A DNA stretch of 32,000 nt from Gemmata obscuriglobus (GCF_008065095.1 NZ_CP042911.1:840001-872000), one strand, 5' to 3'. Numbered from the stretch's first letter, positions 1,451-32,000 are shown. Translations and numbers: made by a program. Notes: generated from the sequence alone by a model not told the origin.

Positions 1451-1462
1451 GCGCACGTTTCA

Positions 1463-3376: not shown

Positions 3377-3393
3377 CCTGCGCGAGGAACCCC

Positions 3394-5823: not shown

Positions 5824-5878
5824 GTTGGGCTCCGCGAGTGATCTCATCTCGGCGGCCGTCAACTTGAAACGACTGGAA

Positions 5879-16374: not shown

Positions 16375-16402
16375 ATTGCTGTCAGGCGTCGTGGGTGCGG
16401 CT

Positions 16403-16705: not shown

Positions 16706-16836
16706 GCAAATACCCTGTCCCAGGATCGAACCCGCAAGGGCTTGTACCTCGCCGACACCCCGGCAGAACTCAACCGGGTGAAGACACCGACGGGCGAAGG
16801 GCGGTTCACTCAGAACGGAACCGCTCCTCGTCGCGG

Positions 16837-18723
16837 TCACTTCGTTTTCGACCCCATCAGTTCGCCGAGCACATCGGGCTTGCCCGCCGTGCGGTCGAGG
16901 CGCGGGTACCGCAACCCGTCCTTGTAGTCGAGCGCGTGGGTCTTGAAGAAGTCGCCGCTTTCGGCCAGCAGTTCGAGCTTCCCGCCGGCTTTTGTCGCGC
17001 CGACGGCGGCCTTGAGCCCGTCCGGCGAGAAGCGGCGACCGTTCACCGCGATCAGTTTCATCCCGGGGGCGAGTCCCGCTTTCGCGGCCGGCGAGTTCGG
17101 GACCGTGTCCCCGACGAGTCCGTCCGCGCTGACCGAGAACCCGACCGAATCGGAGAGGTTCACTCCCTTCGCCAGCCCCTCCATCGTCGTGAACAGATCC
17201 GTCGGCTTGTCGGAGTAGGCGAGTGCCCAGCCTCCGCTCGTGATGCCGTCCAGCGGCGGCGCCTCCGCCACCGCCTCGACCCGGCGGGCGAAGTGCCCCT
17301 TCCAGTCGTAGGGCGCCACCTCGTTGAGAGCCTTCAGCACGTCGTCGAGCGCATAGCGCTCCACCGCGGGTGCGCCCGTTCCGGTGCCGAAGAACGCCTT
17401 GCAGAAGTCGTCCAGAGTCTTCGCGCCCTTCGTCCGGGTGCGAATCAGCACGTCCGCTTCGAGCCACAGCAGCGTGCCCTCGTCGTAAAAATCCACCGAC
17501 CGCCGGGCCGACCGCCACGCCCCCGTGGCGTCGAACAGCGTGCTGGCGGCCGCCGCGGTGTCGTCCAGCGGGCGCCACCCGCGGGCCTTCACGTTCGACA
17601 TGCGGGCCGCCGTCATCGCGAGGTAGTCGCGGCCCTCGTCGGGCGTGTACAGCCCGCTCCGCACCGCCAGCAACCATCCCAGATAGTTGGTCAGCCCTTC
17701 GTACACCCACAGCAGCCGCGTCTGCTGCGGCTGCTGGTAGTCGCGTTTGAGCATGTCGGCCGGGCGCCGGTACTTGCCGTTCCAACTGTGAACGAACTCG
17801 TGCGGGAACAGCGTTGCGGACGCCTTCCGCTCGCCAGCTTTTACCAGCGCGAGTTCGGCGAGGCGGTTGTCGCTCGACTGGTGGTGCTCGATGCCCGCCC
17901 GCGGAATGTGGTTACTCAGGCCTAGTAAGAAAGTGTAGTTGGTGTAGGGTTTCGCCGGCCCGAACAGCTTCTCGGCCTCACCCGGGAGCCGCTTCCACGC
18001 GGCGAGGGTCGCTTCGGGTGCGTCGAGGCCGGCGGCGCTGTCGCACGCGATAAACACCCGGTGTTTGCCGTTCGCCCCGTCGAGGGGCACCTCGCGCACG
18101 TGCTCCCCCGCCAGGAGCGGCGAATCGACGAGCGTGCCAAGGGGCACCGACCCGAAGGTCGTGACGCCGCCGGACGTTCCTTTGGCCGGGAGAGCGGTGC
18201 CGCACACCCAACCGGCCGGCAGCGTCACCGCCGGGGTGAAGGTGAGTTCCTCCAGCGGCGCCGCACGCGGCGCGTCCAACTTCGGGTACATCAGCACGTC
18301 GTTCCAGTTCAGCATCAGCAGCTTCGGCGACGCGACCGTCATGAACTGTGCCCCGCCCTCGGCGCCGGCCGCGAGCAGCAGGTCGAACGTGACTTCGATC
18401 TCCTTCGCGCCGTCGGGCACTGCTACGGCGACGGTGAACGGGTCGGCGTCGTCGCGCTTCCACGTGAGCGCTTTGCCGCTCGCCGCGGCGCGGAACTCGG
18501 TGACGTTGGCGATCTGACCGACGGGCCGGTGCCGCCCCGGGATCCACTTCGGGTAGTGCAGGGTGAGCGACTCCGACTGCGCCGGGATCACCTCACGCAC
18601 GTGGATCACCTTCCGCGCGACCTCGGACGCGTCGACGTGGAGCCGGATCTCTTCAGCCGCCGCAGGGGGCGGGAACAGCGTGAACGCCACGAGGGCAAGA
18701 ACAGCGAGCGCGGAACGCGGCAT
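16837..18723 (-). CDS. M61 family glycyl aminopeptidase with C-terminal PDZ domain, secreted
   Basis: The start is taken at ATG 18723-18721 (MPRSALAVLALVAFTLFPPPAAA signal). The zinc motif is HEFVHSWNGKYRRP (HExxH). The PDZ-like segment is GLAPGMKLIAVNGRRF. The overall length is typical of M61. Confidence 0.85.
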   Translation of the reverse strand: MPRSALAVLALVAFTLFPPPAAAEEIRLHVDASEVARKVIHVREVIPAQSESLTLHYPKWIPGRHRPVGQIANVTEFRAAASGKALTWKRDDADPFTVAVAVPDGAKEIEVTFDLLLAAGAEGGAQFMTVASPKLLMLNWNDVLMYPKLDAPRAAPLEELTFTPAVTLPAGWVCGTALPAKGTSGGVTTFGSVPLGTLVDSPLLAGEHVREVPLDGANGKHRVFIACDSAAGLDAPEATLAAWKRLPGEAEKLFGPAKPYTNYTFLLGLSNHIPRAGIEHHQSSDNRLAELALVKAGERKASATLFPHEFVHSWNGKYRRPADMLKRDYQQPQQTRLLWVYEGLTNYLGWLLAVRSGLYTPDEGRDYLAMTAARMSNVKARGWRPLDDTAAAASTLFDATGAWRSARRSVDFYDEGTLLWLEADVLIRTRTKGAKTLDDFCKAFFGTGTGAPAVERYALDDVLKALNEVAPYDWKGHFARRVEAVAEAPPLDGITSGGWALAYSDKPTDLFTTMEGLAKGVNLSDSVGFSVSADGLVGDTVPNSPAAKAGLAPGMKLIAVNGRRFSPDGLKAAVGATKAGGKLELLAESGDFFKTHALDYKDGLRYPRLDRTAGKPDVLGELMGSKTK

Positions 18724-18803
18724 AACGGCTTCTCCGGTACGAGCGGAAGCCGACATGATACCCGCTCGCCTGTGAAGTTGCGCACCAGCCGCCAGAAACG
18801 CAA

Positions 18804-18829
18804 ACGGCTCGCCCACTTGGGCGAGCCGT
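18804..18829 (-). terminator. Terminator-like hairpin downstream of the 938-aa gene
   Basis: ACGGCTCGCCCA-CT-TGGGCGAGCCGT has perfect 12-nt arms. On the minus strand it is followed by TTGCGTTTCT. Confidence 0.45.
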
Positions 18830-18855
18830 CGCTTGTGTTCCAGCCGTTCATTCAC

Positions 18856-18881
18856 CCAGGCGGGCTCTGGTGCCCGCCTGG
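18856..18881. repeat. Palindrome CCAGGCGGG-N8-CCCGCCTGG immediately after the stop of the 938-aa gene
   Basis: A 9-bp stem, read directly. It shares the CCCGCCTG core with the 5755-5823 palindromes. Confidence 0.6.
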
Positions 18882-18887
18882 AGCTCA

Positions 18888-21704
18888 TCAGCCGACGAAC
18901 ACGCCGCCGAGGAACCCGTCGAACGCGGCGATGGCGCTGAGGGCCGTAAAGTTACTGCCGTCGAAGGTGCGCACCAGCGCGTTGCTGCCCGGCCCCGGCC
19001 CGACCAGGATGTCGGGAACCGCGTCGCTGTTGAGCCGCCCCAGGGCCACGCGGGCGCCGCCCGTGCCCGGGATCGTGGCGATGGTCGCACCACCCGTCGC
19101 GACCGTCGTGCGCTGGAACACCTTCACCTGGCCGTTCACGCCCGGCCCGGTGCCGACCACGAGTTCCGCGAACCCGTCGGCGTTCAGGTCGCCCGCCGCC
19201 ACGTTCACGCCACCGTTGAACCCTGAGAACGCGATGAAGCTGAGCACAGTGCTCCCGGTGCGCGTGAACGCCTTCACGTGCGCCGGGCCGGTCGCGCTGC
19301 CCACGACGATCTCGTCGGCGCCGGTCCCGTCGTAGTTGCCCGCCGCCACCGTCACGCCGCCGGTGGACCCGTCGAACGCGATGAAGCTGGACAGCAGCGT
19401 GTTGTTGGCGAAGCTGAACGCCTTGACGTGCGCCGCGCCGGACCCGGTGCCCACCACGATGTCGCCGCGGCCGTCGCCGTCCACGTCGCCCACCGCGACG
19501 TTCACCCCGCCGGTGAACCCCGAGAACGAGAAGAAGCTCGAGATCAGCGCCCCGGTGGCGCCGTCGAACACCTTCACGTGGCCGCCGGCCGCCCCGGCCC
19601 CGGCCCCCACCACGATGTCTTCAACCTGGTCGCCGTTCACGTCGCCGGTGGCCACGCGCACGCCGCCGTTGAACCCGTCGAACGCGAAGAAGCTGAACCG
19701 CAGCGAGCCGTCCTGGTTGTACACCTTCACGTGGCCGTTGGCGCCCGCGTCCGCGCCCACCGCCGTCAGGTACACCGGGGTCGCGGCCGGACCCGGGTCG
19801 TTCGCCCCGCCGGTGCTGTCGAACAGCGTCACGGTAACCGTCGCGGTGCTGACCGTGAGCCCGTCACTCACCTGCACCGTCAAGTTGAACGTCCCGGTGC
19901 CGAGTGCGGCCGGAACGGCGACGGTGAGCCGGCCGGTCGCCGCGTCGATGGCGAAGGCGCCGCCCGTGTTGCCGTCGGTGATGCTGTACGCCAGCGGGTT
20001 GCTGTTCGCGTCGCTCGCGACCACCTGACCGACGAGCGCGCCCGCCGGGCTGCCGATCGGCAGTTCGAACGTCTGGTTGGCAACCGCCGGCGCCACGTTG
20101 CCGGCCGCGGCGGGGGAGCTGAAGTCGACCGTCCCGCGCGTGGCCACATCAACGCTGTGGTCCACCACCTGCTCGATGAACGCGAGCGAGTCGGACGCGA
20201 AGGTGTTGTTGCGGGCCGAGGTGTTCGCCCCGGCGCCGGCGGCGTTCAGGTTGATGATCGCCCGCGCCGCGCCGGTCGGTAGGTAGTTCGCGAAATTGTT
20301 CCCGCCGGTGCTGGTGCCGAGGGCCGTGCCGCCGCCGCCCGCGTCCGCCAGGCCGACGAAGACCAGGGGAGGAATTTCCTCGCCCTGCGGGATTGTTACG
20401 GTCTGCACCCGCAGCCCGGCGATCGCGTTGTTGTTGAGGTCCGCGCCCTGGATCAGGGCCGTCCCGCCGTTCACGTCGATCCCGACACCGGTGCCCGTGA
20501 AGGAGCCGTTGAAGATCGTCGCGACCGAACCGGCCTGAATGCTCACGCCGGTCCCGGTGGCCGTGCCGGTGATGACGTTGCCGCCGCCCAGTTGCGCCAC
20601 GCCCTTCGACTGGATCAAAATCCCGGTCTGCACGTTGGTTAGCGTGTTGCCGAGGACGAGCACCGGGCCGTTACTCGAGAAGTCGTACCCAGGGAACTCG
20701 ACGGGGCTGAGCCACGCCAGCCCGACGTTCGCACCGGTCACCGTGTTCCCGGCGTAGGTCACGACCCCGTCAGGGCCGGAGTGCGAGGTGATGACGAACG
20801 CCTGCTGCAGGTTCGCCGCCGGGTTCACGCCAGCGGCGTTCAGGAACTGGTTGCCGCTGACGGTGATGTTGCTCCCGTGGGAGTGGCCGTTCTCCCAAAT
20901 GCCCACGATCCGCTGCGGGTTCGCGACCGCGGCCGCGTTCAGCACCCGGATCGTGTTCCCCGTGATCCGCAGCCCTTCGTAGGTTCCCGGGAAGAACGTC
21001 TCGGACTGAATCCCGACCGTACTCGAGTTCGCCGTGGACCCGGCCACATCGCCGGGGATCTCGATCAGGTTGTTCGAGATCGTCTGCCCGGTGCCGAAGC
21101 TGAAATTGATGCCGATGTTCTGGGACACGTCTGCCGGGGCCGCCGCCGTACTCAGGTCGGTCGCGATGCGGATCCGGTTGTTCGTGATGGTCGTGCCGGA
21201 GTAGGCGCCCGCCCCGGCCCCGCTCGGGTCCCCGTACATCCCGATCCCGAGATCGAAATCGAGCAGGGTCAGGTTGGAAAACGTCCACCCGGTGTTGGTG
21301 CCTGCCCCGCCGGGGAAGTAGAACGCGCCCTCGAGGTCGAAGTCGGGTAGGTCGCCCGGACCCTGAATCACCGCGGACCCCAGCGACGCGGCGGTCACCG
21401 TGACGTTGTCCAGGCCGTCGTTGATGGTGATCGCGTACTCGTCCCCGGTGTCCGCAAGGCCGTCGTTGCCCAGCGCCCAGGCGGCGGCAGCGTTCGGCTC
21501 GGTCCAGTCGAAGTTACCGCTCAAGATAACGGTGTCGCCCGGGCTGACGAAGTTAGGGCTAGCGGGGTCAGTGAACGCGTCGGCCAGGATGCGGTAGTTG
21601 TTGTTCGTCGCGGTGAACCCGCTGGTCAAGGCCGTGATTTGGATGGTTGCTGGGGTGAATCGGTTTTCGAGCGATTCAGTCGTCAGGCGAACTCGGTTGC
21701 GCAT
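18888..21704 (-). CDS. Large surface/adhesin-like protein: parallel beta-helix region + cadherin-like domain + six FG-GAP/VCBS-type propeller repeats
   Basis: Residues ~95-500 carry repeated xxITNNRIRI / ISNNLIEI / ITGNTIRV / VSGNQFLN / GNTVTGA / GNTLTNV turns typical of right-handed beta-helices. Residues ~537-628 read VANQTFELPIGSPAGALVGQVVASDANSNPLAYSITDGNTGGAFAIDAATGRLTV...LTVQVSDG, which is cadherin-like. Residues ~645-938 hold six ~50-aa repeats, HVKVF..G.L..SF.AF.GF.GGV.VA.GDV.GDG..DIVVG.G. Confidence 0.8.
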   Translation of the reverse strand: MRNRVRLTTESLENRFTPATIQITALTSGFTATNNNYRILADAFTDPASPNFVSPGDTVILSGNFDWTEPNAAAAWALGNDGLADTGDEYAITINDGLDNVTVTAASLGSAVIQGPGDLPDFDLEGAFYFPGGAGTNTGWTFSNLTLLDFDLGIGMYGDPSGAGAGAYSGTTITNNRIRIATDLSTAAAPADVSQNIGINFSFGTGQTISNNLIEIPGDVAGSTANSSTVGIQSETFFPGTYEGLRITGNTIRVLNAAAVANPQRIVGIWENGHSHGSNITVSGNQFLNAAGVNPAANLQQAFVITSHSGPDGVVTYAGNTVTGANVGLAWLSPVEFPGYDFSSNGPVLVLGNTLTNVQTGILIQSKGVAQLGGGNVITGTATGTGVSIQAGSVATIFNGSFTGTGVGIDVNGGTALIQGADLNNNAIAGLRVQTVTIPQGEEIPPLVFVGLADAGGGGTALGTSTGGNNFANYLPTGAARAIINLNAAGAGANTSARNNTFASDSLAFIEQVVDHSVDVATRGTVDFSSPAAAGNVAPAVANQTFELPIGSPAGALVGQVVASDANSNPLAYSITDGNTGGAFAIDAATGRLTVAVPAALGTGTFNLTVQVSDGLTVSTATVTVTLFDSTGGANDPGPAATPVYLTAVGADAGANGHVKVYNQDGSLRFSFFAFDGFNGGVRVATGDVNGDQVEDIVVGAGAGAAGGHVKVFDGATGALISSFFSFSGFTGGVNVAVGDVDGDGRGDIVVGTGSGAAHVKAFSFANNTLLSSFIAFDGSTGGVTVAAGNYDGTGADEIVVGSATGPAHVKAFTRTGSTVLSFIAFSGFNGGVNVAAGDLNADGFAELVVGTGPGVNGQVKVFQRTTVATGGATIATIPGTGGARVALGRLNSDAVPDILVGPGPGSNALVRTFDGSNFTALSAIAAFDGFLGGVFVG

Positions 21705-22095
21705 CGGTTTAGGATCGTGGGGGGGATGGGGCCGGGATAACCTTCCGAAAGCGACACCTGCGAGGGTCGGGAGGGCACGCAGGTAAGCGCCGGCAGTCGT
21801 CGTCAGGCACGAACTATTGCCGGCGCTGCAGAGTCATTCTGCCCGCAGTGGCATTTATAACCGCGGAGCGTCGGCATTGATTACGGCAGAATGCGACTTT
21901 ATTGAAGGTCCGTGAACTCGCATCGCACTATTAGCTTAAAAAATAGCGAATTCGTGGTAGAGAGGAACCATTTTAGGGTCTCATAAGAAACCCTTGTGGT
22001 TATTGTCTCATCAAAATTCGCCACCCACAAATGGACAATTTTTGTTCAGCCGCCAGCACCTCGGCATCCACTTGTCATGCTGTATTACCCAAAAC

Positions 22096-22131
22096 CAGTT
22101 TACACAGTTTGCACAGTTTACACCGTTGACA
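22096..22131. repeat. Four tandem 9-bp units CAGTTTACA-CAGTTTGCA-CAGTTTACA-CCGTTGACA in an AT-rich intergenic island
   Basis: Read directly. Each unit contains a TT(T/G)(A/G)CA hexamer resembling a -35 box. Confidence 0.8.
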
Positions 22132-22155
22132 CGGCGTAGTGAACCCACAAATTAT
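22126..22155 (+). promoter_or_regulatory. Candidate promoter TTGACA-N18-AATTAT facing the SWIM-SNF2 gene
   Basis: TTGACA is at 22126-22131 and AATTAT at 22150-22155, ~200 nt upstream of ATG 22355. This is a pattern match only, and planctomycete promoter rules are poorly known. Confidence 0.2.
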
Positions 22156-22354
22156 TTTTTCGCTGCCGCCTTAAAGGTCGCACAACGCATTTAAACGGGC
22201 GAGGCGTGGCGGAAGTGCTTCCGCCCCCGCTCCGCTTACCGCAACTGAACTGAACCGCAAGGCACCAGACGCTCTGCACGGCGGGCGAGCGTGCTGGCAC
22301 GGTACAATGGGCGGCGCGAACCGTTCCGCGGTCCGGGTCGGCGAAAGGAAACGC

Positions 22355-24598
22355 ATGCTCCGCGAAGTGCAGATCGACATCCGGCGACAGCGGGCGAGGG
22401 CCACGAAGTTCGCAATCGAGAACTTGGGCAAGAACCGCGTGTTCTCGGACTACCGGGTTACCAACCCGGAGTCCGGCGGGCAGTACACGGTTTCGATTAA
22501 AGGGTTCGAGGTGGGGGACAACGCCTGCACGTGCCCGGACTTCAAGGCGAACACACTCGGCACCTGCAAACACATTGAGGCCGTGCTCGACCACCTCAAG
22601 GACGAACTGCCGGCACACCTCCAGAAAAAGAAAGCGGTCGTCACCCGGCCCGAGATCTTCCTTCACTACGGCGAGCAGCTTCAGGTCGGGGTTCACCTCC
22701 CCCCCCGGCACTCCGACAAACTCGGGCGGCTGGCGCACGCCTACTTCGACGACAAGGGGCTGTGGTCCGGACGGGGGAAGTACCCGGACCTCATCCGCGA
22801 CGTGGAGGCGGTGCCCGAAGAGGTCACCGTAATGTCCGACGCGCTGGAGTTCATCGACCGCGAGATCGAGCGCGCCGAGATGCTCGCCCGCGAGCAGGAG
22901 TGGTTGCAACAACTGGAAGCCGGCACGCTCGACATGCCTCTCCTCTCGGTGCCGCTGTACGACTACCAGATGCGCGGGGTGCTGTTCCTCGCGTGCCGGG
23001 GCCGCAGCATCCTCGGCGACGACATGGGGCTCGGGAAAACCGTACAGACGCTCGCGGCGGTCGAGCTGCTGGCCCGCGAGCGCGGCATCCGCCGCGCGCT
23101 GGTCGTCGCCCCGGCTTCGGTCAAGTACCAGTGGGAGACCGAGATCCGGAAGTTCACCGCGCGGCCCGTTCAGGTGATCGAGGGCGGCCCCGGGGTCCGG
23201 CTCGACCAGTACGCCGAGCCCACCTTCTTCCGGCTCGTCAACTACGAACAGGTCGTGCGTGACCGCGAGGCGATCAACGCCTGGAAGCCCGACGTGATCG
23301 TGCTGGACGAGGCGCAGCGGATCAAGAACTGGGAGGCGAAGACCTCGCGCGAGGTGAAGAAGCTGCGGAGCCGGTACGCGATCGTTCTGACCGGCACCCC
23401 CCTGGAGAACCGGCTCGAGGAGCTGTACAGCATCGTGCAGTTCGTGGACGAGCGCCGGTTCGGCCCGGCGTTCGAGTTCCTCCACGAGCACCGGGTGCTG
23501 GACGAGAACGGCAACCTCAAGGGGTACCGCAACCTCGACAAGATCCGCGAGAAACTCGCGCCCATCTTCCTGCGGCGCACCCGCGGCGAGGTGCTCACGC
23601 AGCTCCCTGCGCGCACGGACAACACCGTGTTCGTGGAACTCGCCGACGAGCAGCGCGGCCCTTACGAGGAGCAGCGGGTCACGCTGGCGCGGCTCCTTCA
23701 AAAGAACTACCTGACCGACCTCGACCGGAAGCGCATCCTCGCGTCGCTGGTGAACCTCCGCACCATCTGCGACAGCCTGTTCCTGTACGACAAGCAGACC
23801 CGCGTGTCCCCCAAGCTGGACGAGTTCGCGGAGCTCGTCCCCGAACTCGTCAGCGATCACAAGCTGGTGGTGTTCTCGCAGTGGGAGACGATGGCGATGG
23901 AGGCCGCGAAGGTGCTCGACCGGTTGGGCGTGGGCTACGTGCTCCTGCACGGCGGCCTGCCCGGGAAGGAGCGCAAGGCGGTGCTCGAGCGGTTCCAGGC
24001 CGACGCGGCGTGCAAAGTGTTCCTCAGCACCGACGCGGGCGGCACCGGCCTGAACCTTCAAATGGCGGACACGGTGGTGAACCTCGAACTGCCGTGGAAC
24101 CCGGCGGTGCTGGAGCAGCGCATCGCCCGGGTCCACCGGATGGGTCAGAACCGCCCGGTGCGGGTGATCAACTTTGTCACCCGTGGCACAATTGAGGAGC
24201 GGGTGCTGCGCACGGTCGAATCGAAGCAGGCGCTGTTCGCCGGGCTGTTCGCGGGCGACGCGGACGAGATCCCGTTCGAGGCGGTCGGCACCGGCAGGTT
24301 CCTCGACACCATGCGCGAACTGGTCGAGACGGGTGCAGAAGCGGAGGACGGCGGGCAAAGGGCCAGCGACCACGATCAGAAGACACAAGGCGAGTGCGTG
24401 CCGGCCTTACCGCCGTCACCGCTTGCGGCCCGGCCCTTGCCTTCCGCGTGGCACGGATTGGCCCAAATTGTAGAAGGTGCGTGCGCGGTGCTGGCTGATC
24501 CGGACGCGATGCAGCAACTGCCCCCCGAGGTACGCGAGCGGCTGCGCGCCGCTATCCGCTCACTTGACAGCCACTTCCGTTCAGAACCGTCGAATTAG
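22355..24598 (+). CDS. SNF2-family ATPase/helicase with N-terminal SWIM zinc finger
   Basis: ATG 22355 (AAGGA 6 nt upstream) is preferred; ATG 22307 is the alternative. The SWIM finger is CTCPDFKANTLGTCKHI. SNF2 motifs: DDMGLGKT (I), LDEAQRIKN (II), LTGTPLENR (III), and helicase-C FLSTDAGGTGLNLQ and QRIARVHRMGQ (VI). A ~110-aa C-terminal extension has no motif I recognise. Confidence 0.85.
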   Translation: MLREVQIDIRRQRARATKFAIENLGKNRVFSDYRVTNPESGGQYTVSIKGFEVGDNACTCPDFKANTLGTCKHIEAVLDHLKDELPAHLQKKKAVVTRPEIFLHYGEQLQVGVHLPPRHSDKLGRLAHAYFDDKGLWSGRGKYPDLIRDVEAVPEEVTVMSDALEFIDREIERAEMLAREQEWLQQLEAGTLDMPLLSVPLYDYQMRGVLFLACRGRSILGDDMGLGKTVQTLAAVELLARERGIRRALVVAPASVKYQWETEIRKFTARPVQVIEGGPGVRLDQYAEPTFFRLVNYEQVVRDREAINAWKPDVIVLDEAQRIKNWEAKTSREVKKLRSRYAIVLTGTPLENRLEELYSIVQFVDERRFGPAFEFLHEHRVLDENGNLKGYRNLDKIREKLAPIFLRRTRGEVLTQLPARTDNTVFVELADEQRGPYEEQRVTLARLLQKNYLTDLDRKRILASLVNLRTICDSLFLYDKQTRVSPKLDEFAELVPELVSDHKLVVFSQWETMAMEAAKVLDRLGVGYVLLHGGLPGKERKAVLERFQADAACKVFLSTDAGGTGLNLQMADTVVNLELPWNPAVLEQRIARVHRMGQNRPVRVINFVTRGTIEERVLRTVESKQALFAGLFAGDADEIPFEAVGTGRFLDTMRELVETGAEAEDGGQRASDHDQKTQGECVPALPPSPLAARPLPSAWHGLAQIVEGACAVLADPDAMQQLPPEVRERLRAAIRSLDSHFRSEPSN

Positions 24599-24715
24599 TG
24601 TCGCGCGAAGGGCCGTTGGTACGGGTCATGCAAGTTCTACCTCCGCTGAACCGGCCCGGCGTGGATCGCCGGCCGAACGAACGGCTCCCCACCCGGGCAG
24701 CCCCGGAGGACACAG

Positions 24716-25081
24716 ATGAAAACGTTCGCACTTGCGGCCTTCGCCGCCATCGGTCTCGCGTTCACCGCCGGCACCGCCGACGCCCAGTTCCGCAGCCGCA
24801 GCGTATCTAGCTACAACTACCCGTCGGCGATTTACAACTATCCGTCCACTGTTTACCCGTCGGCGATTTACAACTATCCGTCCGTCACCTACTCATCTTA
24901 CGCGCCGGCGTACAGCGGCATCGGTGTCAGCAACTACTACTCCCCGTATTCGGGCAGCGTGGTCACGCCCGCCGGCTTCACCACGACTTACAGCACGCCG
25001 TATTACAGCGCTCCGTACTACAGCACGCCGTACTCCAGTAGCTACGGCGGCATGTACCGGGGCCGCGGCTGGCGGCGGTAA
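24716..25081 (+). CDS. Small secreted Tyr/Ser/Pro-rich low-complexity protein (121 aa)
   Basis: ATG 24716 follows GGAGGA. The signal peptide is MKTFALAAFAAIGLAFTAGTADA. The mature part is dominated by YNYPS/YYS units and ends RGRGWRR. A terminator follows the gene. Confidence 0.7.
   Translation: MKTFALAAFAAIGLAFTAGTADAQFRSRSVSSYNYPSAIYNYPSTVYPSAIYNYPSVTYSSYAPAYSGIGVSNYYSPYSGSVVTPAGFTTTYSTPYYSAPYYSTPYSSSYGGMYRGRGWRR
24818..24883 (+). repeat. Perfect 30-bp direct repeat (24818-24847 and 24854-24883), 36-nt period, inside the Tyr-rich gene
   Basis: TACCCGTCGGCGATTTACAACTATCCGTCC occurs twice and encodes YPSAIYNYPS twice, in frame. Confidence 0.9.
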
Positions 25082-25093
25082 CGCTTCCACTAT

Positions 25094-25130
25094 CGGACCG
25101 AGGAGCGAACCCTCGGTCCGCACTTTTTGT
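25094..25130 (+). terminator. Rho-independent terminator
   Basis: CGGACCGAGG-AGCGAAC-CCTCGGTCCG (10-bp stem) is followed by CACTTTTTGTTGTT. Confidence 0.7.
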
Positions 25131-25202
25131 TGTTAAGGCACGACAATCGCAAGGTATGTTCTAACGTTCCGAGCCCGCGGACTTCAACATAGGAGGCACA
25201 CC

Positions 25203-25550
25203 ATGAAACGCTTTACTTTCGCCGCGGTGGCTGCCCTCGCCATCGGCCTGACCACCGCCGCGACCGCCGACGCCCAGTACGCGTACCGCTTCTACAACAC
25301 CACCCCCAACGGCGGCGTTGTGGTTACCAATAACTACGGCAACTGGGGCGCTTACGGCGCGAACCGCACTTACGTTTCCCCGTTCGGCGGCGTGTACCAG
25401 CGGTCGTACTACGGGGACGTGTTCGGTAACTCGGTCGGCCGGTCTTACGGGTACAACCCGCTCGGCGGCTACGGCTACAACCGCGGGTTCGGTTACAACC
25501 CGTACAACCCGCTTGGCGGCTACAACTACAATTTCTACCGCCGCTGGTGA
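25203..25550 (+). CDS. Small secreted Tyr/Gly/Asn-rich low-complexity protein (115 aa), paralogous signal peptide to the upstream gene
   Basis: ATG 25203 follows AGGAGG. The signal peptide is MKRFTFAAVAALAIGLTTAATADA. The mature part carries GYNPLGGYGYN-type units and ends FYRRW. Confidence 0.7.
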   Translation: MKRFTFAAVAALAIGLTTAATADAQYAYRFYNTTPNGGVVVTNNYGNWGAYGANRTYVSPFGGVYQRSYYGDVFGNSVGRSYGYNPLGGYGYNRGFGYNPYNPLGGYNYNFYRRW

Positions 25551-25572
25551 GCGAATTCGGAGTCGAGCAAGA

Positions 25573-25605
25573 GAACGGGCCGCGGATCAGATCCGCGGCC
25601 CGTTC
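25573..25605. terminator. Bidirectional terminator hairpin between convergent genes
   Basis: GAACGGGCCGCGGATC-A-GATCCGCGGCCCGTTC is a near-perfect 16-nt inverted repeat. It lies between stop 25550 (+) and stop 25610 (-). Confidence 0.6.
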
Positions 25606-25609
25606 GCGT

Positions 25610-26638
25610 TCAGCCCACCTCACGCCAGCGGGCGCGGACTTTCTCGGGCGGCGCGGTGCCGGTCACCCCGATCTGCTGAATGGTGATCGACGCCACGAGG
25701 TTCCCGAACGCCGCCGCCTGCTCGTGCGTCAGCCCGCTGACCATCGCGGACGCGATCCCCGCGGAGCAACTGTCGCCGGCGCCGCAAATGTCGATCGGCC
25801 CCGCGACGGGGTACGCCGGCACGCTGGTGAGCACCGGCTCGCCTTTTCGGGTGTCGAATAAGCGGATGCCCTGTTCGCCGTTCGTCGCGAACACGAGCGG
25901 GCCGGGGGGCAGGATCTTCAAGTCGGCGTCGTCGTAGACTGCCCCTCCGCCGGTCGGCTCCTGGGAAGACAACTCGCGCGACGACTTGAGTTCGTTGCCG
26001 TTCGGCTTTACGCAGACGTTGCGGAACTGGTAAATCCGCTCCCGACTGTCGGCCATGACGAACTTGTCCGAGTCGCGCTCCGCCAGTCGTGCGACGTGCT
26101 CGCGCACGCGGGCGGTCACCACGCCGCAATCCTCCTCGCTCACCTGATCGAGTACGAGCAGCGCGTCGAGTTGCGGCCACGCGGCGTCGAGTAACTCGAT
26201 GATGCGCGACTGAATGCCGTCCGGTGTCGGGGTGCGGTTCTTGATGTCGAGCCGGTTCAGCTCGTCCTTTCCCAGCATCGGTTTCGTGTAGGTGGGGGTG
26301 CGCCGCGCCTCCGACTGGATGATCCCGCCCTGTTCGACGGCGGAAAGCGTCCGGAGCGCCTGACGGAGTTCGTACCCCTCGCCGTCGTCGCCGATGCACG
26401 CGATGGGGTAGATGCGTCCCACGCCCAGCGCCGCGAGGTTGTTGATGACGGTTCCTGCGGCTCCGGGATAACTGCGCACCTTCACGACCTGGTACGCGGT
26501 GAGCCCGGTTTCCACTGAAGGCTCGTTCAGACCCGGGTCGATGTCCAGGTAACGGTCGAGGAACAGGTCGCCGAGCACCCCGATCGTGCGGCCCGGGATG
26601 GTGGTCAGTACACGTTCAACGAGGTCGGTTGTGAGCAT
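25610..26638 (-). CDS. PfkB-family carbohydrate kinase, RfaE/HldE kinase-domain-like
   Basis: The start is taken at ATG 26638-26636 (MLTTDLVERVL...). The N-terminus IGVLGDLFLDRYLDID...EPSVETG resembles the heptose-7-phosphate kinase domain. The C-terminal PfkB signature is PIDICGAGDSCSAGIASAM. The upstream ORF extension to 27049 was rejected. Confidence 0.8.
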   Translation of the reverse strand: MLTTDLVERVLTTIPGRTIGVLGDLFLDRYLDIDPGLNEPSVETGLTAYQVVKVRSYPGAAGTVINNLAALGVGRIYPIACIGDDGEGYELRQALRTLSAVEQGGIIQSEARRTPTYTKPMLGKDELNRLDIKNRTPTPDGIQSRIIELLDAAWPQLDALLVLDQVSEEDCGVVTARVREHVARLAERDSDKFVMADSRERIYQFRNVCVKPNGNELKSSRELSSQEPTGGGAVYDDADLKILPPGPLVFATNGEQGIRLFDTRKGEPVLTSVPAYPVAGPIDICGAGDSCSAGIASAMVSGLTHEQAAAFGNLVASITIQQIGVTGTAPPEKVRARWREVG

Positions 26639-26849
26639 GGGGACGGGCTTCTGACGCGGGGGCAGAGTTTCTGTTCGCGTTTTCAGAGTACCGGTTCGAT
26701 TGCGGCCGACATCTCGAAATCCGGGCCGTTTGTGGGCGAATCGTGGTGAGTGTGAAACCGCCGGGAGCGACGGGGGGTGAATGCACTTGCTGCGGAACGA
26801 ATTTTGCGTATACAATTCGCCCGTAGCCCCGTTGCCGGTCAGGGAGTCC

Positions 26850-27206
26850 ATGCGCAGATTAGGTGCGACGCTCCGGTTCCTCGCTGTAGCCCTGTGTCTG
26901 GTGCCCTTCACCAGTTCGCAGCAGGCCCGGGCGGCGCTCTTGCCGGTCGTCCCGGTGCCGGCCGCGCCCGACGCGCCGACGAACGAGGAAGAGGAGCAGC
27001 GCGAGGAGCGCGGCGAGCGGGAAGAGAGTGCGGCCAAGGCTCGACACACCTTCCCGTACCGGAACGCCGAGCCGATTCGCGAACTCGTTGCGACCCTGCC
27101 GCCCGCGCACGCTATGCACTACTCTCACGTCGCCAAACCGCGGACGACGCCGCCGAGCGCCGCCGACCCGTTCCGCAACGGTCTTGGCGCCCCCTATCGC
27201 TGTTAA
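26850..27206 (+). CDS. Hypothetical small secreted protein with an acidic EEEEQREERGEREE tract (118 aa)
   Basis: ATG 26850 directly follows AGGGAG. The N-terminus is signal-like (MRRLGATLRFLAVALCLVPFTSSQQARA). Third-position G/C bias is acceptable. I recognise no motif. Confidence 0.4.
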   Translation: MRRLGATLRFLAVALCLVPFTSSQQARAALLPVVPVPAAPDAPTNEEEEQREERGEREESAAKARHTFPYRNAEPIRELVATLPPAHAMHYSHVAKPRTTPPSAADPFRNGLGAPYRC

Positions 27207-27341
27207 CCGGTTCCGTTACGCACCCCGCGCCGCCCCCGCGCGCCCCGAATCAACCGGTCGGTCCCAGGACCGCGCCGCGCACGCGACCGTGCGCGGCGGC
27301 CCAGCCCCCTCGCGTCACGATCCAAATGGAGACGGTATAAC

Positions 27342-28037
27342 GTGGAAAAGCTCATCAGCGGGATTCACAAGTTCCAGGCCGACGTGTTCGCCCCCAACAG
27401 CGACTTCTTCCGGAAGCTGGTGGAGGGGCAGCACCCGCAGGCGCTGTTCATCACCTGCTCCGACTCCCGCATGGTGCCGGACCTGATCTGCCAGACCGAC
27501 CCCGGCGAGCTGTTCGTGCTCCGCAACGCGGGCAACATCGTTCCGCCGTACACGCCGGGCGCGGCCAGCGGCGAGGCGGCCACGATCGAGTACGCGATCC
27601 GCGGGCTGGGCATCAAGGACATCGTCATCTGCGGGCACACGCGGTGCGGGGCGATGCAGGCGGTGGCCGAGCCGTCGGCGACGGCCAACATGCCGCGCGT
27701 GCGCCAGTGGCTGGAGCACGCGCAGGCCAGTTCGGAGATCGTCTGCACGTGCTACGGGCACCTGACGGGCGAGGCCCGCGCGAAGGTGATGGTGCAGGAG
27801 AACGTGCTGACGCAGGTGGAGCACCTGCGCACCCACCCGACGGTGGCGGCGGCGCTGGCGGCGGGCGAGCTGAAGCTGCACGCCTGGGTGTACAAGATGG
27901 AGACCGGCGACGTGTTCGCCTACGACCCCGAGAGCGGTCAGTTCACGAAGCTCGCGACCGACGCCGACCCGACCCAGTCGTACCCGCTGCTCCCGCGCCG
28001 CCCGGCGACGCCGCTGAGCACCGCGGACGCGATCTGA
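27342..28037 (+). CDS. Beta-class carbonic anhydrase (CynT/Can type)
   Basis: It aligns by eye along its whole length with E. coli CynT. Motifs: LFITCSDSRMVPD (Cys, Asp-x-Arg), LFVLRNAGNIVPPY, and IVICGHTRCGAM (His-x-x-Cys zinc ligands). The start is GTG 27342. No cyanase gene is adjacent. Confidence 0.9.
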   Translation: MEKLISGIHKFQADVFAPNSDFFRKLVEGQHPQALFITCSDSRMVPDLICQTDPGELFVLRNAGNIVPPYTPGAASGEAATIEYAIRGLGIKDIVICGHTRCGAMQAVAEPSATANMPRVRQWLEHAQASSEIVCTCYGHLTGEARAKVMVQENVLTQVEHLRTHPTVAAALAAGELKLHAWVYKMETGDVFAYDPESGQFTKLATDADPTQSYPLLPRRPATPLSTADAI

Positions 28038-28235: not shown

Positions 28236-31200
28236 TCAGCGGAGCCGCTCGACGTAGGGCACGACCGGCTTGTACTTATCGAGAGTGAAGTTGAACCCCG
28301 GTTGTGGCCCCGCGTACCCCGGCCGCACGTTCGATACGACGGTACCACCCCAGGCGTCACGAGTGAGGCCAGTCACTTCCAGTTGCCCCGCTCCGAGTAC
28401 CTTGGTCACGACTACGGGAGTGGGGGTCGGATTTCCTGCGGTCGGGTTCGGTGGTTGTTGCTCAGCACCATATCCAATGATCAACTGAGTACCAACCGTG
28501 ATTGGCTTCCTGACCCCATCAGCAGACACGTATACAATCCCATTACCGGTATCATATGACTCATGCGCAATTGACAGTATAGACGTTGTTGCCGGAGCAA
28601 CCGGGGCGCGGGCGGTCGCCGTAAGCGCCGTGAAGAACGGAGCCTCGGTCGCGTGAGGGTTCGTGTCGGTGAGCGACGTCGTTCCCTTCAACGCCATGTT
28701 CGACATGTCGATGACGGCCACGAACTTCTGCCGCATGTCGCCGGGAATTTGATCGTATACCTCGGCTCCGAAGCGCGGAGGCGCTGGCACACCCGTAGGC
28801 CAAGTCGTCGGCACCGTTTGCAAACCATCAGGCTCAAAGTACCCAACGGTCAGATACACCACGAACGAATGGCTGACGGTGGTGAGGTTGTTCATGACCT
28901 TGCGCAGCGGCTCGCTCTGCGTATACGGGTGATGAACAACGGTGGGGTCAGCCTGCGGGTCCAAGATCAGGTGCGGTTCCGGGTTCGGAATGGCCGTTGT
29001 CTCCGGGCGCCGCAAGATCGTGTCCCCGTCGATGAACGTACTCGGGTTCCCGTAGGCAAACGTGCCGGCCGTTGCAGTCGGGGTCGCAAAGGGCATGAAC
29101 GGCCGGTCGGCACCGCCTTCCGCGATGCTCCCGGTCGGCACCGGGGAGTTGAACACGGTGACACCGTCCGCCTGCTTACGTCCCTGCATGTTCGAGCGGG
29201 ACCGCAGCCACTTGTCCCACACTGTGTCGTTCACGAAGGCGAGGTTGAACCGGTTGTTCGCCTGTGGCGCCCACACACCTTGTACGACGCGGCGATCCTG
29301 GATCACGTTCGGGTTCACCTTACCGGCGACCCGACCGCCGTGAGGCACGCGGAGGTCCGGCGACTTCACGGACAGCAGACCCAGCGCCCGCGTGAGCCCG
29401 TCGTTGTGCCTCGTCCACTGCGCGTAGCTGGCGTCGTATCGGAGGGACGGTGCGGTCGCGTTCGGGCGCACGAACTCGGACGTGAGCCGGTGCGGCGGGC
29501 AGTCTCGCACCGTGAACAGATCGCCCTGCGTTTCGAGCGGCCGGTCCAGGTGGGGCAGCCAGTCGAACGGGAGCATAATGGTATCCGTGAGCGTTGCCGG
29601 GGTATTGGCAGGTGTCACGGTCGCGCCCCCCGGGAGTGCCGCCAAGTGCCCATTATGACGACCGAAAGTATTTTTCGGCTCGTTCGGGTCGTTCGTTACC
29701 ATCGGATCTGTCGCCGGAGTCGGCAGGGTCGGGGCACCGGTCTGGTCCCGGATCATCGAGTCTGTCAGCGAAGAAGCGACTGCACGCCCGGTGTTACCGT
29801 TGTACACGTTGTACGCCCCAGGGCCGTTCATCGGAACCATGCCCGAATACGCAGCTAACGGCTGGACCTTTCCGACGGAGAACCTCTGGGTCACAGGATC
29901 GTACCCACCCGGGTTGCCGCCGTCTCGTTCCTTGCGGTCCGTCGGTTGTCCCGCCGCGCGGTGAACCGCGTCGAACGCCGGCACATTGTCCATCATGTCA
30001 ACGGTGACGTAAGGGTTGGGCGTCCGACTCGGATCGTAGCTGTAGTTCGGGTCGTTGGCCGGCAAGTACGGATTGGTGAGCCGGCGGAGTTGCACCACGT
30101 GCCGCTTGAACTCCTTGTTTGATAGGATGGTCGCGCTGGGCATCGTCAACATGTACCCCATCCCGCTACTGGACGTCGCCGGCCCGAGAGGTTGCGAATC
30201 GACCTTGTTCGTCGTTGCCCAAACGCCGGCTGCCGGGGGGGTGAATTCTTTTGCGTCCTTTTTCGGAGTGAGCGTCGGCGGGCCGACCAGTACGAACCCG
30301 CCCGCCGGGAGCGTGCTGGCCGGGCCGCCCGTGTACGGCGGAGCATACTGGCTATTGGGGCCGTTGTTAATCAGTGTCACATCGTTGGGCGCGACAGCCG
30401 CAGGGTTACTCCCGACCGGAACAAGCGGGAAGTTAAACATTGCGTCAGCAGTGACCGGGGTTCCGGTCGCGTCACCAAATACTCCGGACGTGTTACTGAG
30501 CGAGCTAAGGAACGAGATCCGATCCCCGGTGCCACCGGTCTCCTGAATCGCACGTGCGATTTGGATCTGATAAGCGCTCAGATTCACGGCGCCGGTCCCA
30601 AGTACACCGGTGTTCGTTGCGTGCGGGGCGGAAGTCGGGTTCACTAACTCGGCCCAAAACCGAACTTGGGCGTTGGCCGTCGGTGCCAACGGAGTCGGGT
30701 TGCCGTCCTTGTCTTTGACAGCTTCAACCTGGTCACCCGGACCCGTATCGTTGGTGATCTCGCTATACACCTCGTTGAGCAGCAACCGCGGCTTCTCGAT
30801 GCCGAACACCGCCCGGTTGCCAACCTTTGCCGCTTTCAAATCCTCTGCTGCACCTTCAACAGGGTTCCACAGGAACGTGGTGCTGACATCGTCGTTGTCG
30901 ATGTGATCCACGATGTTCACCGCGAGCTGCGCCAGGTACCGCAGCGCGTCGTATTGCTGCGTGGTGTACGCCACACCCGCGCCGTTGATTTGGCGCGTGA
31001 TCGGGTTGGGAAGGCTGATGTTGCCGGTGTTTGGGTCAACGATGGCCGCCGCGCCGGTCGCGACACAGAGGCGGATGAAGATGTCTTTCGCCAGCGCCTG
31101 CCGGTCGGCCTCGGCCTGAACAACGTTGCCCATGTTTTTTAGCAACAACGGGTCCGGGGTCAGAGTTCCCGTCGGGTTTACATCGGTGCCGAGTGGCTTC

Positions 31201-32000
31201 GTCAGATCGGTGCGGTAGTCGGCCAGCGGGCGGTTCAGGTTCACCGACCCCAGCGCGGCCTGAATGTTGTACCAGCGCTGCGTAACACCTGCGCCAACAG
31301 CCACCGGCGGCGCGAAGTCGGTCACCGTCCCAGGGTTTTGCGGCGTGGGGTATACGGTTGCGGTGGGATTGGCGCCAGCGAACAGGCCGCCCGGCTTGGT
31401 CGCACCCGCAACGATTTGCAGCGCCGGCGACGCAGACCCGGTACCGGTCCCGTCGTCGCGGCTCACGAAGTTCGGCGCCAGGGCCGGGCGATCCAGCCCC
31501 GTCGCCTTCGGGGTAAACAGGAGCCGCCGGTTGTGCGCCGGGTCGAGCCGGTAATTGGACGACGTACTAGCCCCCGGGTTCGCCAAATACGGGTATGTGG
31601 TCGGTTGCCCCAGGAACGTGTCTTGCGCGGCCTTGGTCGCGAACGCCTGGTAATACCAGTCCGGCGTGTACGCGTACCGCAGGCTGAACCGCTTCAGGTC
31701 CGTGTACGGGAAGATCGGGCTGTTCATGTTGGCCGTGTTACGCACGGCGAACTCGTCCCGGTTGTACCCGGCAGGGTGCCCGAGCGTCAGATCGGGGAGA
31801 GCCGGGGGCTTGGGCACCTGGGCATTGTCGTTCTGGAAGTTGCTGTAGATGGGGGTCAGAGTCGGGTTGGCACGTGACGGCTGCCCGAACAGGCTGTTGC
31901 CGGCCGGGAACTGGAAGTCCACCTGTGCCCCGGTCCACGACACGCCGCCGTAGGTCGGGAGCAGTTGTCCGGTCGCGAACGGGTTGAACTCGGCGGGGTA
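28236..32000 (-). CDS. Very large (>1254 aa, 5'-truncated by the window) Thr/Asn/Pro/Gly-rich protein of unknown function; possibly a giant GspK-like pseudopilin/pilus-associated protein
   Basis: The reading frame stays open from 31943 to the window edge (...YPAEFNPFATGQLLPTYGG-VSWTGAQ...), so the GTG at 31943 is not the start. Coding bias is consistent over 3.7 kb. Motifs: GSVNLNRPLADY (31215-31247), RLLLNEVYSE, VQLRRLTNPYLP, FDWLPHLDRPLETQGDLFTV and GKVNPNV (29304-29324). Confidence 0.75.
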   Translation of the reverse strand, partial: YPAEFNPFATGQLLPTYGGVSWTGAQVDFQFPAGNSLFGQPSRANPTLTPIYSNFQNDNAQVPKPPALPDLTLGHPAGYNRDEFAVRNTANMNSPIFPYTDLKRFSLRYAYTPDWYYQAFATKAAQDTFLGQPTTYPYLANPGASTSSNYRLDPAHNRRLLFTPKATGLDRPALAPNFVSRDDGTGTGSASPALQIVAGATKPGGLFAGANPTATVYPTPQNPGTVTDFAPPVAVGAGVTQRWYNIQAALGSVNLNRPLADYRTDLTKPLGTDVNPTGTLTPDPLLLKNMGNVVQAEADRQALAKDIFIRLCVATGAAAIVDPNTGNISLPNPITRQINGAGVAYTTQQYDALRYLAQLAVNIVDHIDNDDVSTTFLWNPVEGAAEDLKAAKVGNRAVFGIEKPRLLLNEVYSEITNDTGPGDQVEAVKDKDGNPTPLAPTANAQVRFWAELVNPTSAPHATNTGVLGTGAVNLSAYQIQIARAIQETGGTGDRISFLSSLSNTSGVFGDATGTPVTADAMFNFPLVPVGSNPAAVAPNDVTLINNGPNSQYAPPYTGGPASTLPAGGFVLVGPPTLTPKKDAKEFTPPAAGVWATTNKVDSQPLGPATSSSGMGYMLTMPSATILSNKEFKRHVVQLRRLTNPYLPANDPNYSYDPSRTPNPYVTVDMMDNVPAFDAVHRAAGQPTDRKERDGGNPGGYDPVTQRFSVGKVQPLAAYSGMVPMNGPGAYNVYNGNTGRAVASSLTDSMIRDQTGAPTLPTPATDPMVTNDPNEPKNTFGRHNGHLAALPGGATVTPANTPATLTDTIMLPFDWLPHLDRPLETQGDLFTVRDCPPHRLTSEFVRPNATAPSLRYDASYAQWTRHNDGLTRALGLLSVKSPDLRVPHGGRVAGKVNPNVIQDRRVVQGVWAPQANNRFNLAFVNDTVWDKWLRSRSNMQGRKQADGVTVFNSPVPTGSIAEGGADRPFMPFATPTATAGTFAYGNPSTFIDGDTILRRPETTAIPNPEPHLILDPQADPTVVHHPYTQSEPLRKVMNNLTTVSHSFVVYLTVGYFEPDGLQTVPTTWPTGVPAPPRFGAEVYDQIPGDMRQKFVAVIDMSNMALKGTTSLTDTNPHATEAPFFTALTATARAPVAPATTSILSIAHESYDTGNGIVYVSADGVRKPITVGTQLIIGYGAEQQPPNPTAGNPTPTPVVVTKVLGAGQLEVTGLTRDAWGGTVVSNVRPGYAGPQPGFNFTLDKYKPVVPYVERLR

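Follow-up and report, generated by a model that had tools for sequence, protein, structure and literature searches.

GspK, the minor pseudopilin K of type II secretion (T2SS), tops the GspI-J-K tip complex with no subunit above it, and its equivalent in the type IVa pili of Pseudomonas aeruginosa, the minor pilin PilX, is a protein of about 200 aa whose gene is followed by a separate PilY1 gene; PilY1 carries a Sec signal. Members of TIGR02600 ('Verru_Chthon cassette protein A') are encoded beside the prepilin-type cassette proteins B, C and D, and the length of this model, 1296 positions, implies a very large protein. PilY1 is believed to be placed at the tip, on top of the priming complex of minor pilins (PMC7541494, PMC8179133); it does not belong to the pilins, its defining feature being a C-terminal beta-propeller (PMC8179133). 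In GspK and ComZ, both accepted as pilins, a large inserted domain interrupts the pilin sheet, and the largest modular pilin of the survey that describes them has 860 aa and the canonical IPR012902 motif (PMC8179133).

Here we analysed a window of 32,000 nucleotides from Gemmata obscuriglobus (NZ_CP042911.1:840001-872000), the whole stretch under study, at the edge of which lies a giant open reading frame. Our results suggest that this ORF probably encodes the body of a giant minor pilin of the GspK/PilX class, which would cap the tip of a retractile type IVa-like pilus. The gene closes a type IV pilus operon and the protein starts like GspK and PilX, which makes an outsized pilus tip subunit the most likely reading; a first-pass annotation of the window had proposed such a pilus or pseudopilus tip protein, and both the operon position and the N-terminus support it.

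The giant gene and its operon

The ORF occupies positions 28236-32000 on the minus strand, with 1254 sense codons and a single stop at 28236-28238, and its frame is still open at nt 32000. The full protein (P0001) has 1658 aa and is 100% identical to the window ORF, which therefore corresponds to residues 405-1658, that is, the C-terminal 1254 codons and stop of the last gene of the operon; the first 404 residues lie beyond nt 32000, as expected from the first-pass description of an ORF cut by the window edge. The hundreds of homologues show that the gene is real. It had also been called compositionally distinct, with visibly lower G+C. The G+C is indeed lower, yet only modestly so (63.2% versus 67.5% in the whole window; GC3 77% versus 84-97% in the six nearest genes on the 3' side, window 15382-28037), and "distinct" overstates the difference. 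Since equally low values occur in other 1-kb stretches of the window, the lower G+C is not evidence of foreign origin, and we rejected horizontal transfer: the difference amounts to four points, and synteny of the gene extends across the order. With regard to residues, the protein is rich in Pro (10.7%), Ala (10.5%), Thr (10.3%) and Gly (8.5%), with Asn at 6.5%; Tyr, which had been listed among the abundant residues, reaches 3.5% and ranks 13th of 20. Neither the truncated nor the full protein showed an enzyme or adhesin domain in Pfam or NCBIfam, in line with the earlier failure to see an enzymatic motif; for P0001 the scans returned nothing at E<=1, including PF21687/PF03934 and NF037980.

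Extension of the contig (CP025958.1) revealed the partner genes that had been predicted beyond nt 32000, all on the same strand and directly upstream of the giant gene. Their order is pilT-pilB-pilC-five prepilins-giant, and they code for a PilT-family ATPase, PilB/GspE (616 bits to TIGR02538), PilC/GspF (386 bits) and five prepilins with signals G/FTLIE, A/FTLVE, G/FTLVE, G/LTMTE and A/FTLPE, all of the N_methyl type. The C-terminus of the PilT-family protein was detected upstream in CP025958.1, and the first gene in related loci scored 432 bits against pilT_fam (cut-off 319). The operon thus has the type IVa pilus set of PilB-type and PilT-type ATPases, a PilC platform and several prepilins, and PilT gives it the look of a type IVa pilus, not of a T2SS. 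No gene for a secretin or a prepilin peptidase, and no pilM, pilN, pilO, pilP or pilQ, was found within the 10-kb flank.

Identical gene order was found in Telmatocola and in one distant MAG. Across 51 genome loci for which 6 kb or more of upstream sequence is available, three to six same-strand prepilin ORFs were present in 46, pilC in 45 and pilB in 42; the remaining copies, at 5 of the 51 loci, are orphans without adjacent pilin genes. The order is held across the Gemmatales down to about 27% identity. The family itself, a large planctomycete one, comprises 3781 clusters at 50% identity that match the C-terminal core; the matches listed in the representative search are close relatives, the distant fringe, for example in Verrucomicrobia, lying beyond them. 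Its members range from 1350 to 2100 aa, have no Pfam model and are annotated "hypothetical", and no publication on this protein was found in the literature on the Verru_Chthon cassette or on Planctomycetes with GspK.

UniRef names three homologues (P0002, P0010, P0188) Verru_Chthon cassette protein A. Membership in TIGR02600 was rejected, as the scores are far below the cut-off of 332.3 bits: the matches were marginal in P0101 (18.8 bits, at the model N-terminus) and P0120 (9.6 bits, positions 1199-1220), and there was none for P0001, P0002, P0010 or P0190-P0194. Judged by these profiles, TIGR02600 would be at best a distant sister family. The stretch of P0120 that matched is equivalent to KVMNNLTTVSHSFVVYLTVGYFE.

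The N-terminus and its relation to GspK and PilX

P0001 begins with a basic, class III-type leader of 16 residues that ends in RRG; the hydrophobic stretch after it lacks Glu5 (PRRG/TAILITCFFL). Of 118 homologues, 111 keep the Gly after RR and 115 have V, L or I at position +5; acidic residues are absent from +1 to +8 in all 118, and leaders are again most often 16 residues long. This is the only hydrophobic segment of P0001; its hydrophobic region of about 25 residues lies within a 42-residue helix (residues 15-56) predicted by AlphaFold2. In a comparison by hhalign against a GspK alignment, with a reversed GspK profile as control, residues 1-120 matched GspK 1-57 with 84% probability (E 7e-6). 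The canonical G/FxxxE form of the prepilin-type methylation motif, for which the first-pass annotation had suggested looking, is absent: P0001 has no N_methyl match (PF07963 / TIGR02532), and the G/F-x-x-x-E form with Glu5 is absent from the family (118 homologues). Judged by sequence, the N-terminus is of the GspK/PilX type, being neither a canonical G/FxxxE prepilin nor an ordinary Sec signal. The canonical N_methyl signature misses the whole Glu5-less giant class.

The same comparison was extended to the body; in GspK, the inserted alpha-domain has the DW-x-D-x-D and I-N-x-N-T motifs (helix-hairpin-helix-like), and an S-x-x-F strand lies towards the C-terminus. Residues 685-810 matched GspK 123-208 with 51% probability (E 1.5e-4), compared with 0.1% for the reversed control. 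The C-terminal core matched at 11-22%: PHGGRVAGKVNPNVIQD aligned weakly with CFNLNAL or INVNTA of GspK (14-22%; reversed control 0.5%), and KVMNNLTTVSHSFVVYLTVGYFE weakly with the C-terminal LxVxSxyF strand (11% for the S-x-x-F strand). Outside the N-terminus, these signals are below conventional significance; all matches are colinear, with scores of 30-41 versus 11-20 for the reversed profile, two to three times higher. For the GspK-like Asn motifs noted in the first-pass annotation, the match to the NxN motifs of GspK has low probability. Curated profiles gave no match above threshold: when as many as 29 relatives were compared with Pfam and NCBIfam, no member reached the threshold for a pilin, GspK, PilX or TIGR02600. 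None of 29 members matched T2SSK at E<=10, the one match elsewhere being the N-terminus of P0190 (E 0.9), and PilX_N (PF14341) matched weakly in 6 of the 29 and not in P0001. Family profiles searched against PDB sequences gave 0 matches.

The giant resembles GspK in several respects. Its gene is also the last after (pseudo)pilin genes and next to the GspE/F-type ATPase and platform genes. In the protein, a short basic leader with R-G at its end precedes a hydrophobic alpha-1 that lacks Glu5. No other subunit of its set is as large, and its putative pilin module would carry an inserted domain, as in GspK. The motifs, which outside the N-terminus align weakly, follow the GspK order, namely the N-helix, a helix with D-[WY]-I-D-x-D, I-N-x-N-T and the S-x-x-F strand. 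It differs in being five times larger (1658 aa versus about 330 aa), in belonging to a type IVa pilus-like operon with PilT rather than to a T2SS, in having no counterpart of the GAED-x-Y and PPY-x-AN of GspK in the family consensus, and in matching neither GspK models above threshold nor solved structures in Foldseek. Like PilX, it appears to be a minor pilin without Glu5 whose gene comes after those of the other minor pilins in a type IVa cluster; in contrast to that system, a single giant protein fills the slots of both PilX and PilY1. Both the giant and PilY1 exceed 1000 aa and stand at the end of a minor-pilin operon. The beta-propeller of PilY1 was not found in the giant, either by Pfam or by Foldseek of the 459-1658 model, and the likeness concerns function and position and does not extend to homology. 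Modular pilins (S. sanguinis PilB, T. thermophilus ComZ) are similar in that a pilin module bears a bulky, tip-displayed module, whereas the giant family, at 1350-2100 aa, lacks the IPR012902 motif and any recognisable grafted domain. If these proteins are pilins, the size range of pilin-type subunits would be extended to 1350-2100 residues, compared with the published 860 (PMC8179133).

Conserved blocks and predicted structure of the body

All six motifs quoted in the first-pass annotation were located, a few bases off the positions given there. They had been described as recurrent; self-BLAST yields nothing beyond the identity match, so that internal repeats were rejected, and the blocks are single-copy motifs conserved through the family. 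The first "NxN" motif is the GSVNLNRPLADY block (residues 655-666; 31215-31250, minus strand, as are all blocks below), with the family consensus LGxVDLNRPLADYR, in which N660, R661, L663 and Y666 are nearly invariant. Two long helices and an acidic motif follow at residues 697-780 (30873-31124; DRQxLAxDIFxRL…ATG … LAQLAVNIVDHIDNDD); within the 51% match, this region aligns with the GspK segment FxxLLxxxG…DWxDxD, and no other 30 consecutive residues are as well conserved in the family as 751-780. The VFGIEKPRLLLNEVYSE block (residues 802-818; 30759-30809), with invariant G804, E806 and E814, is a beta strand in the model and starts a predicted sheet with 848-857, 881-887, 1038-1045 and 1068-1082. 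The VQLRRLTNPYLP block (residues 1040-1051; 30060-30095) contains the invariant R1044 and is also predicted to be a beta strand.

The C-terminal half contains the FDWLPHLDRPLETQGDLFTV block (residues 1216-1235; 29508-29567), with invariant D1223 and R1224, which is kept in distant Planctomycetaceae relatives too (WQPHFDRDFSSxxELL). The second "NxN" motif is PHGGRVAGKVNPNVIQD (residues 1290-1306; 29295-29345; consensus GGRVPGKINxNTIxD), in which G1297 and N1302 are invariant; two of the quoted motifs, GKVNPNVIQD and HSFVVYLTVGYF, are at 29295-29324 and 28836-28871, respectively. In the model, KVMNNLTTVSHSFVVYLTVGYFE (residues 1438-1460; 28833-28901) forms a helix followed by a beta hairpin, and RQKFVAVIDMSN (residues 1494-1505; 28698-28733; consensus RxKFFAVVDRSN) is the last conserved core strand. 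The protein ends in a variable, predicted all-beta domain (residues 1527-1658; 28239-28634) whose extreme C-terminus is conserved (VSNVxPGNPGPQPxF…VVPY). The blocks that align with GspK belong to the six 30-residue stretches in which the family is best conserved.

AlphaFold2 models of residues 459-1658 and 1-830 had pTM values of 0.85 and 0.54, respectively, so that the first is a confident model. Foldseek against the PDB gave no GspK, pilin or PilY1 match for either model (best E 0.21 and 4.4), a search in which large insertions would defeat local 3Di alignment, and the C-terminal model had nothing below E 0.1 in BFVD. The top PDB match, the FCCH domain of UBA1 (E 0.21, TM 0.05), was rejected as noise. 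The predicted body is thus without a structural relative in the PDB, and for the globular body no significant profile or structure match to GspK, PilX or PilY1 was obtained, the colinear hhalign signals being weak.

These findings also bear on another explanation, that the giant is a bitopic machine part and not a fibre subunit: an uncleaved N-terminal anchor would hold a huge periplasmic body that serves the planctomycete pilus apparatus as a scaffold, for alignment or by spanning the envelope, for example replacing PilMNOPQ-type parts or within the crateriform structure. A plain anchor needs neither a near-invariant RRG before the hydrophobic stretch nor a strict lack of acidic residues, and the match of the N-terminus to GspK and PilX_N, the colinearity of the body motifs with GspK and the position of the gene in the GspK/PilX slot after the minor pilins argue against it as well. 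We consider it unlikely, although one N-terminal hydrophobic helix with an extracytoplasmic body of about 1600 aa, a body without a structural match to pilins, the tight linkage to pilB and pilC and the absence of pilM, pilN, pilO, pilP and pilQ within 10 kb are all compatible with such a part.

Proposed role at the pilus tip

The ordinary Sec or Tat signals found on T2SS substrates are unlike the giant's hydrophobic region of some 25 residues within its long helix after the conserved RRG. The PilT-family gene marks a retractile pilus rather than a T2SS, and no enzyme or adhesin domain was detected. It is therefore quite improbable that the giant is exported cargo, a surface adhesin or enzyme passed through a T2SS, type IV pilus-like machinery or Sec and then released or attached to the wall unpolymerised, even though very large size, a composition rich in Pro, Thr, Asn and Gly and a variable C-terminal beta domain are shared with many surface proteins and orphan copies exist away from pilin genes. 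That the giant is functionally unrelated to the pilus and its adjacency incidental is highly improbable and close to refuted by synteny. In its favour, the body is not proven to be directly homologous to a pilus protein; against it, the gene order is kept in 46 of the 51 loci and in Gemmatales down to about 27% identity, and the N-terminus is pilin-like.

For the giant as a tip minor pilin, we infer cleavage, methylation and a location at the tip. Prepilin peptidase would cut after Gly16, and the N-terminal helix would bundle with the helices of the upstream minor pilins into a complex on which priming of the fibre at PilC/PilB depends. As it lacks Glu5, the giant would sit uppermost in this complex, with no subunit above it. 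The body of about 1600 residues, with its large lineage-specific insertions, would be displayed at the pilus tip and may act as a putative binding head, the role that PilY1 or grafted modules have in other pili, and PilT-driven retraction would pull on whatever the body has bound. A subunit of 1658 aa must pass an outer-membrane conduit; the secretin gene was not seen within 10 kb.

G. obscuriglobus makes pili-like fibres (PMC5394234, PMC5287468), which emerge from crateriform structures and bind dextran (PMC5394234). It is conceivable, if rather doubtful, that the giant Glu5-less tip pilins are the capture heads of these dextran-binding fibres, and that the PilT of the operon retracts the fibre and drags polymers into the enlarged periplasm. 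If so, the gene family would provide a molecular handle on the long-debated uptake of macromolecules by planctomycetes, and the body, about 1200 residues long, would have a new fold, a GspK-type scaffold inflated by lineage-specific insertions. For planctomycete cell biology, the gene offers a concrete candidate, open to deletion, for the tip of polysaccharide-binding fibres, and genetic tools for the phylum exist (PMC5394234, PMC11958385).

The open reading frame and its N-terminus

Translation of the minus strand at 28236-32000 gave a single open frame of 1254 sense codons, with its stop codon at 28236-28238 and the frame still open at nt 32000. This confirmed the long frame running off the window that the first-pass annotation had described. 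The ORF listing begins the frame at an internal GTG for the sole reason that its true start is beyond the window edge. The full protein, P0001 (1658 aa), is encoded on G. obscuriglobus CP025958.1 and also on ABGO01000121; it is 100% identical to the window frame across the entire stretch, and its codon 405 marks the window edge. All six motifs quoted earlier were found, a few bases at most from their assigned positions. They are not internal repeats: self-BLAST of P0001 yielded the identity match alone, and the six blocks are single-copy and conserved family-wide. The supposed compositional distinctness held only in part. G+C is indeed lower in the frame than in the whole window (63.2% vs 67.5%), and GC3 is 77% vs 84-97% in the six nearest 3'-side genes (15382-28037), but G+C falls just as low elsewhere in the window, and a foreign origin was therefore not adopted. 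The product is rich in Pro, Ala, Thr and Gly, with 6.5% Asn. At window 1-8000, G+C rises to 72-75% and long ORFs overlap on opposite strands (for example 1460-3418 minus and 1535-3376 plus); such overlaps are expected at very high G+C, and genes there cannot be recognised reliably from ORF length alone.

P0001 begins MFRPLLRSHRRPPRRG↓TAILITCFFLITIMMVTGLALV. Among 118 homologues, the RR pair is followed by Gly in 111 and position +5 holds V, L or I in 115. Acidic residues are absent from +1 to +8 in all of them, and the commonest leader length is 16 residues. A 38-sequence GspK alignment has the pattern QRG↓VALxxVLL, and hhalign matched residues 1-120 to it with a probability of 84% (E 7e-6), compared with 2.4% for the reversed GspK profile. 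PilX_N matched weakly in 6 of 29 family members. The N-terminus is of the GspK/PilX pattern, not an ordinary Sec signal, as a pilus-tip assignment anticipated, though not a canonical prepilin signal either. In the GspI-J-K structure the tip is capped by GspK, which lacks Glu5 because no subunit sits above it. The N-terminal hydrophobic segment is the sole one in P0001, and AlphaFold2 predicted one helix, at residues 15-56; beside the GspK/PilX-type leader, it is rather unlikely that this segment marks an uncleaved bitopic component of the machine.

The body of the protein

No Pfam or NCBIfam model matched P0001 or its close relatives, and family profiles found nothing among PDB sequences. The UniRef name of some homologues, 'Verru_Chthon cassette protein A', was rejected, as TIGR02600 matched marginally at most, and only in the homologues P0101 (18.8 bits) and P0120 (9.6 bits; cut-off 332). 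AlphaFold2 modelled residues 459-1658, with 47 homologues, as a single large assembly, mostly beta and irregular (mean pLDDT 76, pTM 0.85); the model of residues 1-830 had a mean pLDDT of 68.5 and a pTM of 0.54. Foldseek found nothing significant in the PDB (best E 0.21 and 4.4, respectively) or, for the 459-1658 model, in BFVD (best E 0.12). The lack of any domain match, taken with the GspK/PilX-type N-terminus, makes exported cargo or an adhesin an unlikely reading.

Sliced profile-profile comparison gave weak, colinear matches to GspK. Residues 685-810 (DRQxLAxDIFxRL…ATG … NIVDYIDNDD) aligned with GspK 123-208 (FxxLLxxxG … DWxDxD) at 51% (E 1.5e-4), the GGRVPGKINxNT block with the GspK NxN motifs at a probability of 14-22%, and NNxTTVSxxFAV…VGYFE with the LxVxSxyF strand at 11%. 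Forward scores were 30-41, vs 11-20 with the reversed profile. The aligning blocks fall within the family's six most conserved 30-residue stretches, residues 751-780 being the most conserved, and also persist in remote relatives from the Planctomycetaceae (22-28% identity). From these alignments we infer that the body may be a GspK-type skeleton swollen by large variable insertions.

The upstream pilus genes and their conservation

The genes directly upstream of the giant gene lie on the same strand past nt 32000, where partner genes of the predicted kind were indeed found. In the CP025958.1 locus (L001), the row holds the C-terminus of a PilT-family ATPase (432 bits for the intact gene in related loci, cut-off 319), an MshEN-domain ATPase of PilB/GspE type (L001:581-2521), a small four-helix-bundle protein between pilB and pilC (L001:2578-3018), PilC/GspF, and five genes with prepilin signals (L001:4458-9916; G↓FTLIE, A↓FTLVE, G↓FTLVE, G↓LTMTE and A↓FTLPE), all on the giant's strand; the giant gene is the final one. 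A carbonic anhydrase gene at window 27342-28037 is convergent with it. The presence of PilT makes the cluster type IVa-pilus-like, not a type II secretion system.

The PilB-type ATPase also matched the c-di-GMP-binding motif model NF053729 weakly (E 0.0044); this match and the MshEN domain hint that pilus extension may be under c-di-GMP regulation. The four-helix-bundle protein is of the 23S rRNA-intervening-sequence type (TIGR02436, 84 bits), and its gene is not at the pilB-pilC position in Telmatocola (L005) or a MAG (L006). All five prepilin-type proteins have 271-404 aa, unusually large for (pseudo)pilins; their pilin-model match is confined to the N-terminal 25-70 residues, and the globular parts are unclassified. 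In the third prepilin gene, the two G. obscuriglobus assemblies are offset by a frameshift (L001:7150-7210 vs L003:7150-7380) within a C-rich run that encodes proline: CP025958 gives a product of 318 aa, ABGO01000121 one of 378 aa. Either an error in sequencing or a tract prone to slippage could account for the difference.

The pilB-pilC-five prepilins-giant order recurs in Telmatocola sphagniphila and one distant MAG. A genome scan gave 228 loci with relatives of the giant gene; 76 distinct loci were kept, nearly all labelled Gemmataceae, Gemmatales or unclassified Planctomycetota. Among the 51 with at least 6 kb of upstream sequence, 3-6 same-strand prepilin-motif ORFs precede the giant in 46, pilC in 45 and pilB in 42. 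Orphan copies occupy 5 of the 51 (L046, L050, L057, L063, L070), with prepilin, pilB and pilC genes all absent within 7-10 kb upstream; beside the counts for the other loci, incidental adjacency to the pilus genes is very improbable. Three orphans (L046, L050, L063) visibly keep the basic leader, Gly and hydrophobic N-terminus; L070 is atypical, RRA replacing RRG, and the spanning ORF of L057 was not recovered.

Family members are 1350-2100 aa long, and a C-terminal core profile (residues 1205-1515) found 3781 50%-identity clusters at E<=1e-3 and 1504 at E<=1e-30. Some genomes hold two or three copies; MAG palsa_1347 has three (L040, L046, L050). Relatives at 27-31% identity lie on eight MAG contigs labelled 'Alcaligenaceae' or 'Bacteroidales' (L036, L039, L051, L052, L056, L072, L076, L082), the first six with a whole Gemmataceae-type pilB-pilC-prepilin-giant operon; these labels probably reflect mistakes in binning or taxonomy.

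Proposed role and related systems

The operon, the GspK/PilX-type N-terminus and the motif order support the outsized pilus-tip protein proposed in the first-pass annotation. We infer cleavage, tip location and a ligand, and consider the following course fairly probable: prepilin peptidase would cut P0001 after Gly16, its alpha-1 helix would bundle with the helices of the upstream minor pilins and prime fibre assembly, P0001 would become the topmost subunit, displaying a head of about 1600 residues, and PilT retraction would pull on its ligand.

Of known proteins, P0001 comes closest to GspK and PilX, in the type of signal, the position of the gene and, more weakly, the order of the motifs; to PilY1 in size and role, though not through homology; and to ComZ and other modular pilins in principle, as a pilin carrying a bulky module (PMC8179133). 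It does not pass the curated tests for membership of any of these. The giants are a very large, unnamed and structurally unmatched family of tip-pilin-like proteins, and our literature search found no paper on P0001. Pili-like fibres that emerge from crateriform structures and bind dextran have been described in G. obscuriglobus (PMC5394234), and pili and predicted pilins were observed in its membrane fractions (PMC5287468); a connection of the family to the biology of planctomycete fibres can be tested.

Elsewhere in the window, a 938-aa protein (18888-21704, minus strand) shows matches of FG-GAP, cadherin and beta-helix type, all weak or faint. An M61 peptidase gene (16837-18888, minus strand) follows directly, its start codon overlapping the preceding stop by one base, so the two are probably co-translated, as a putative surface-protein/protease pair.
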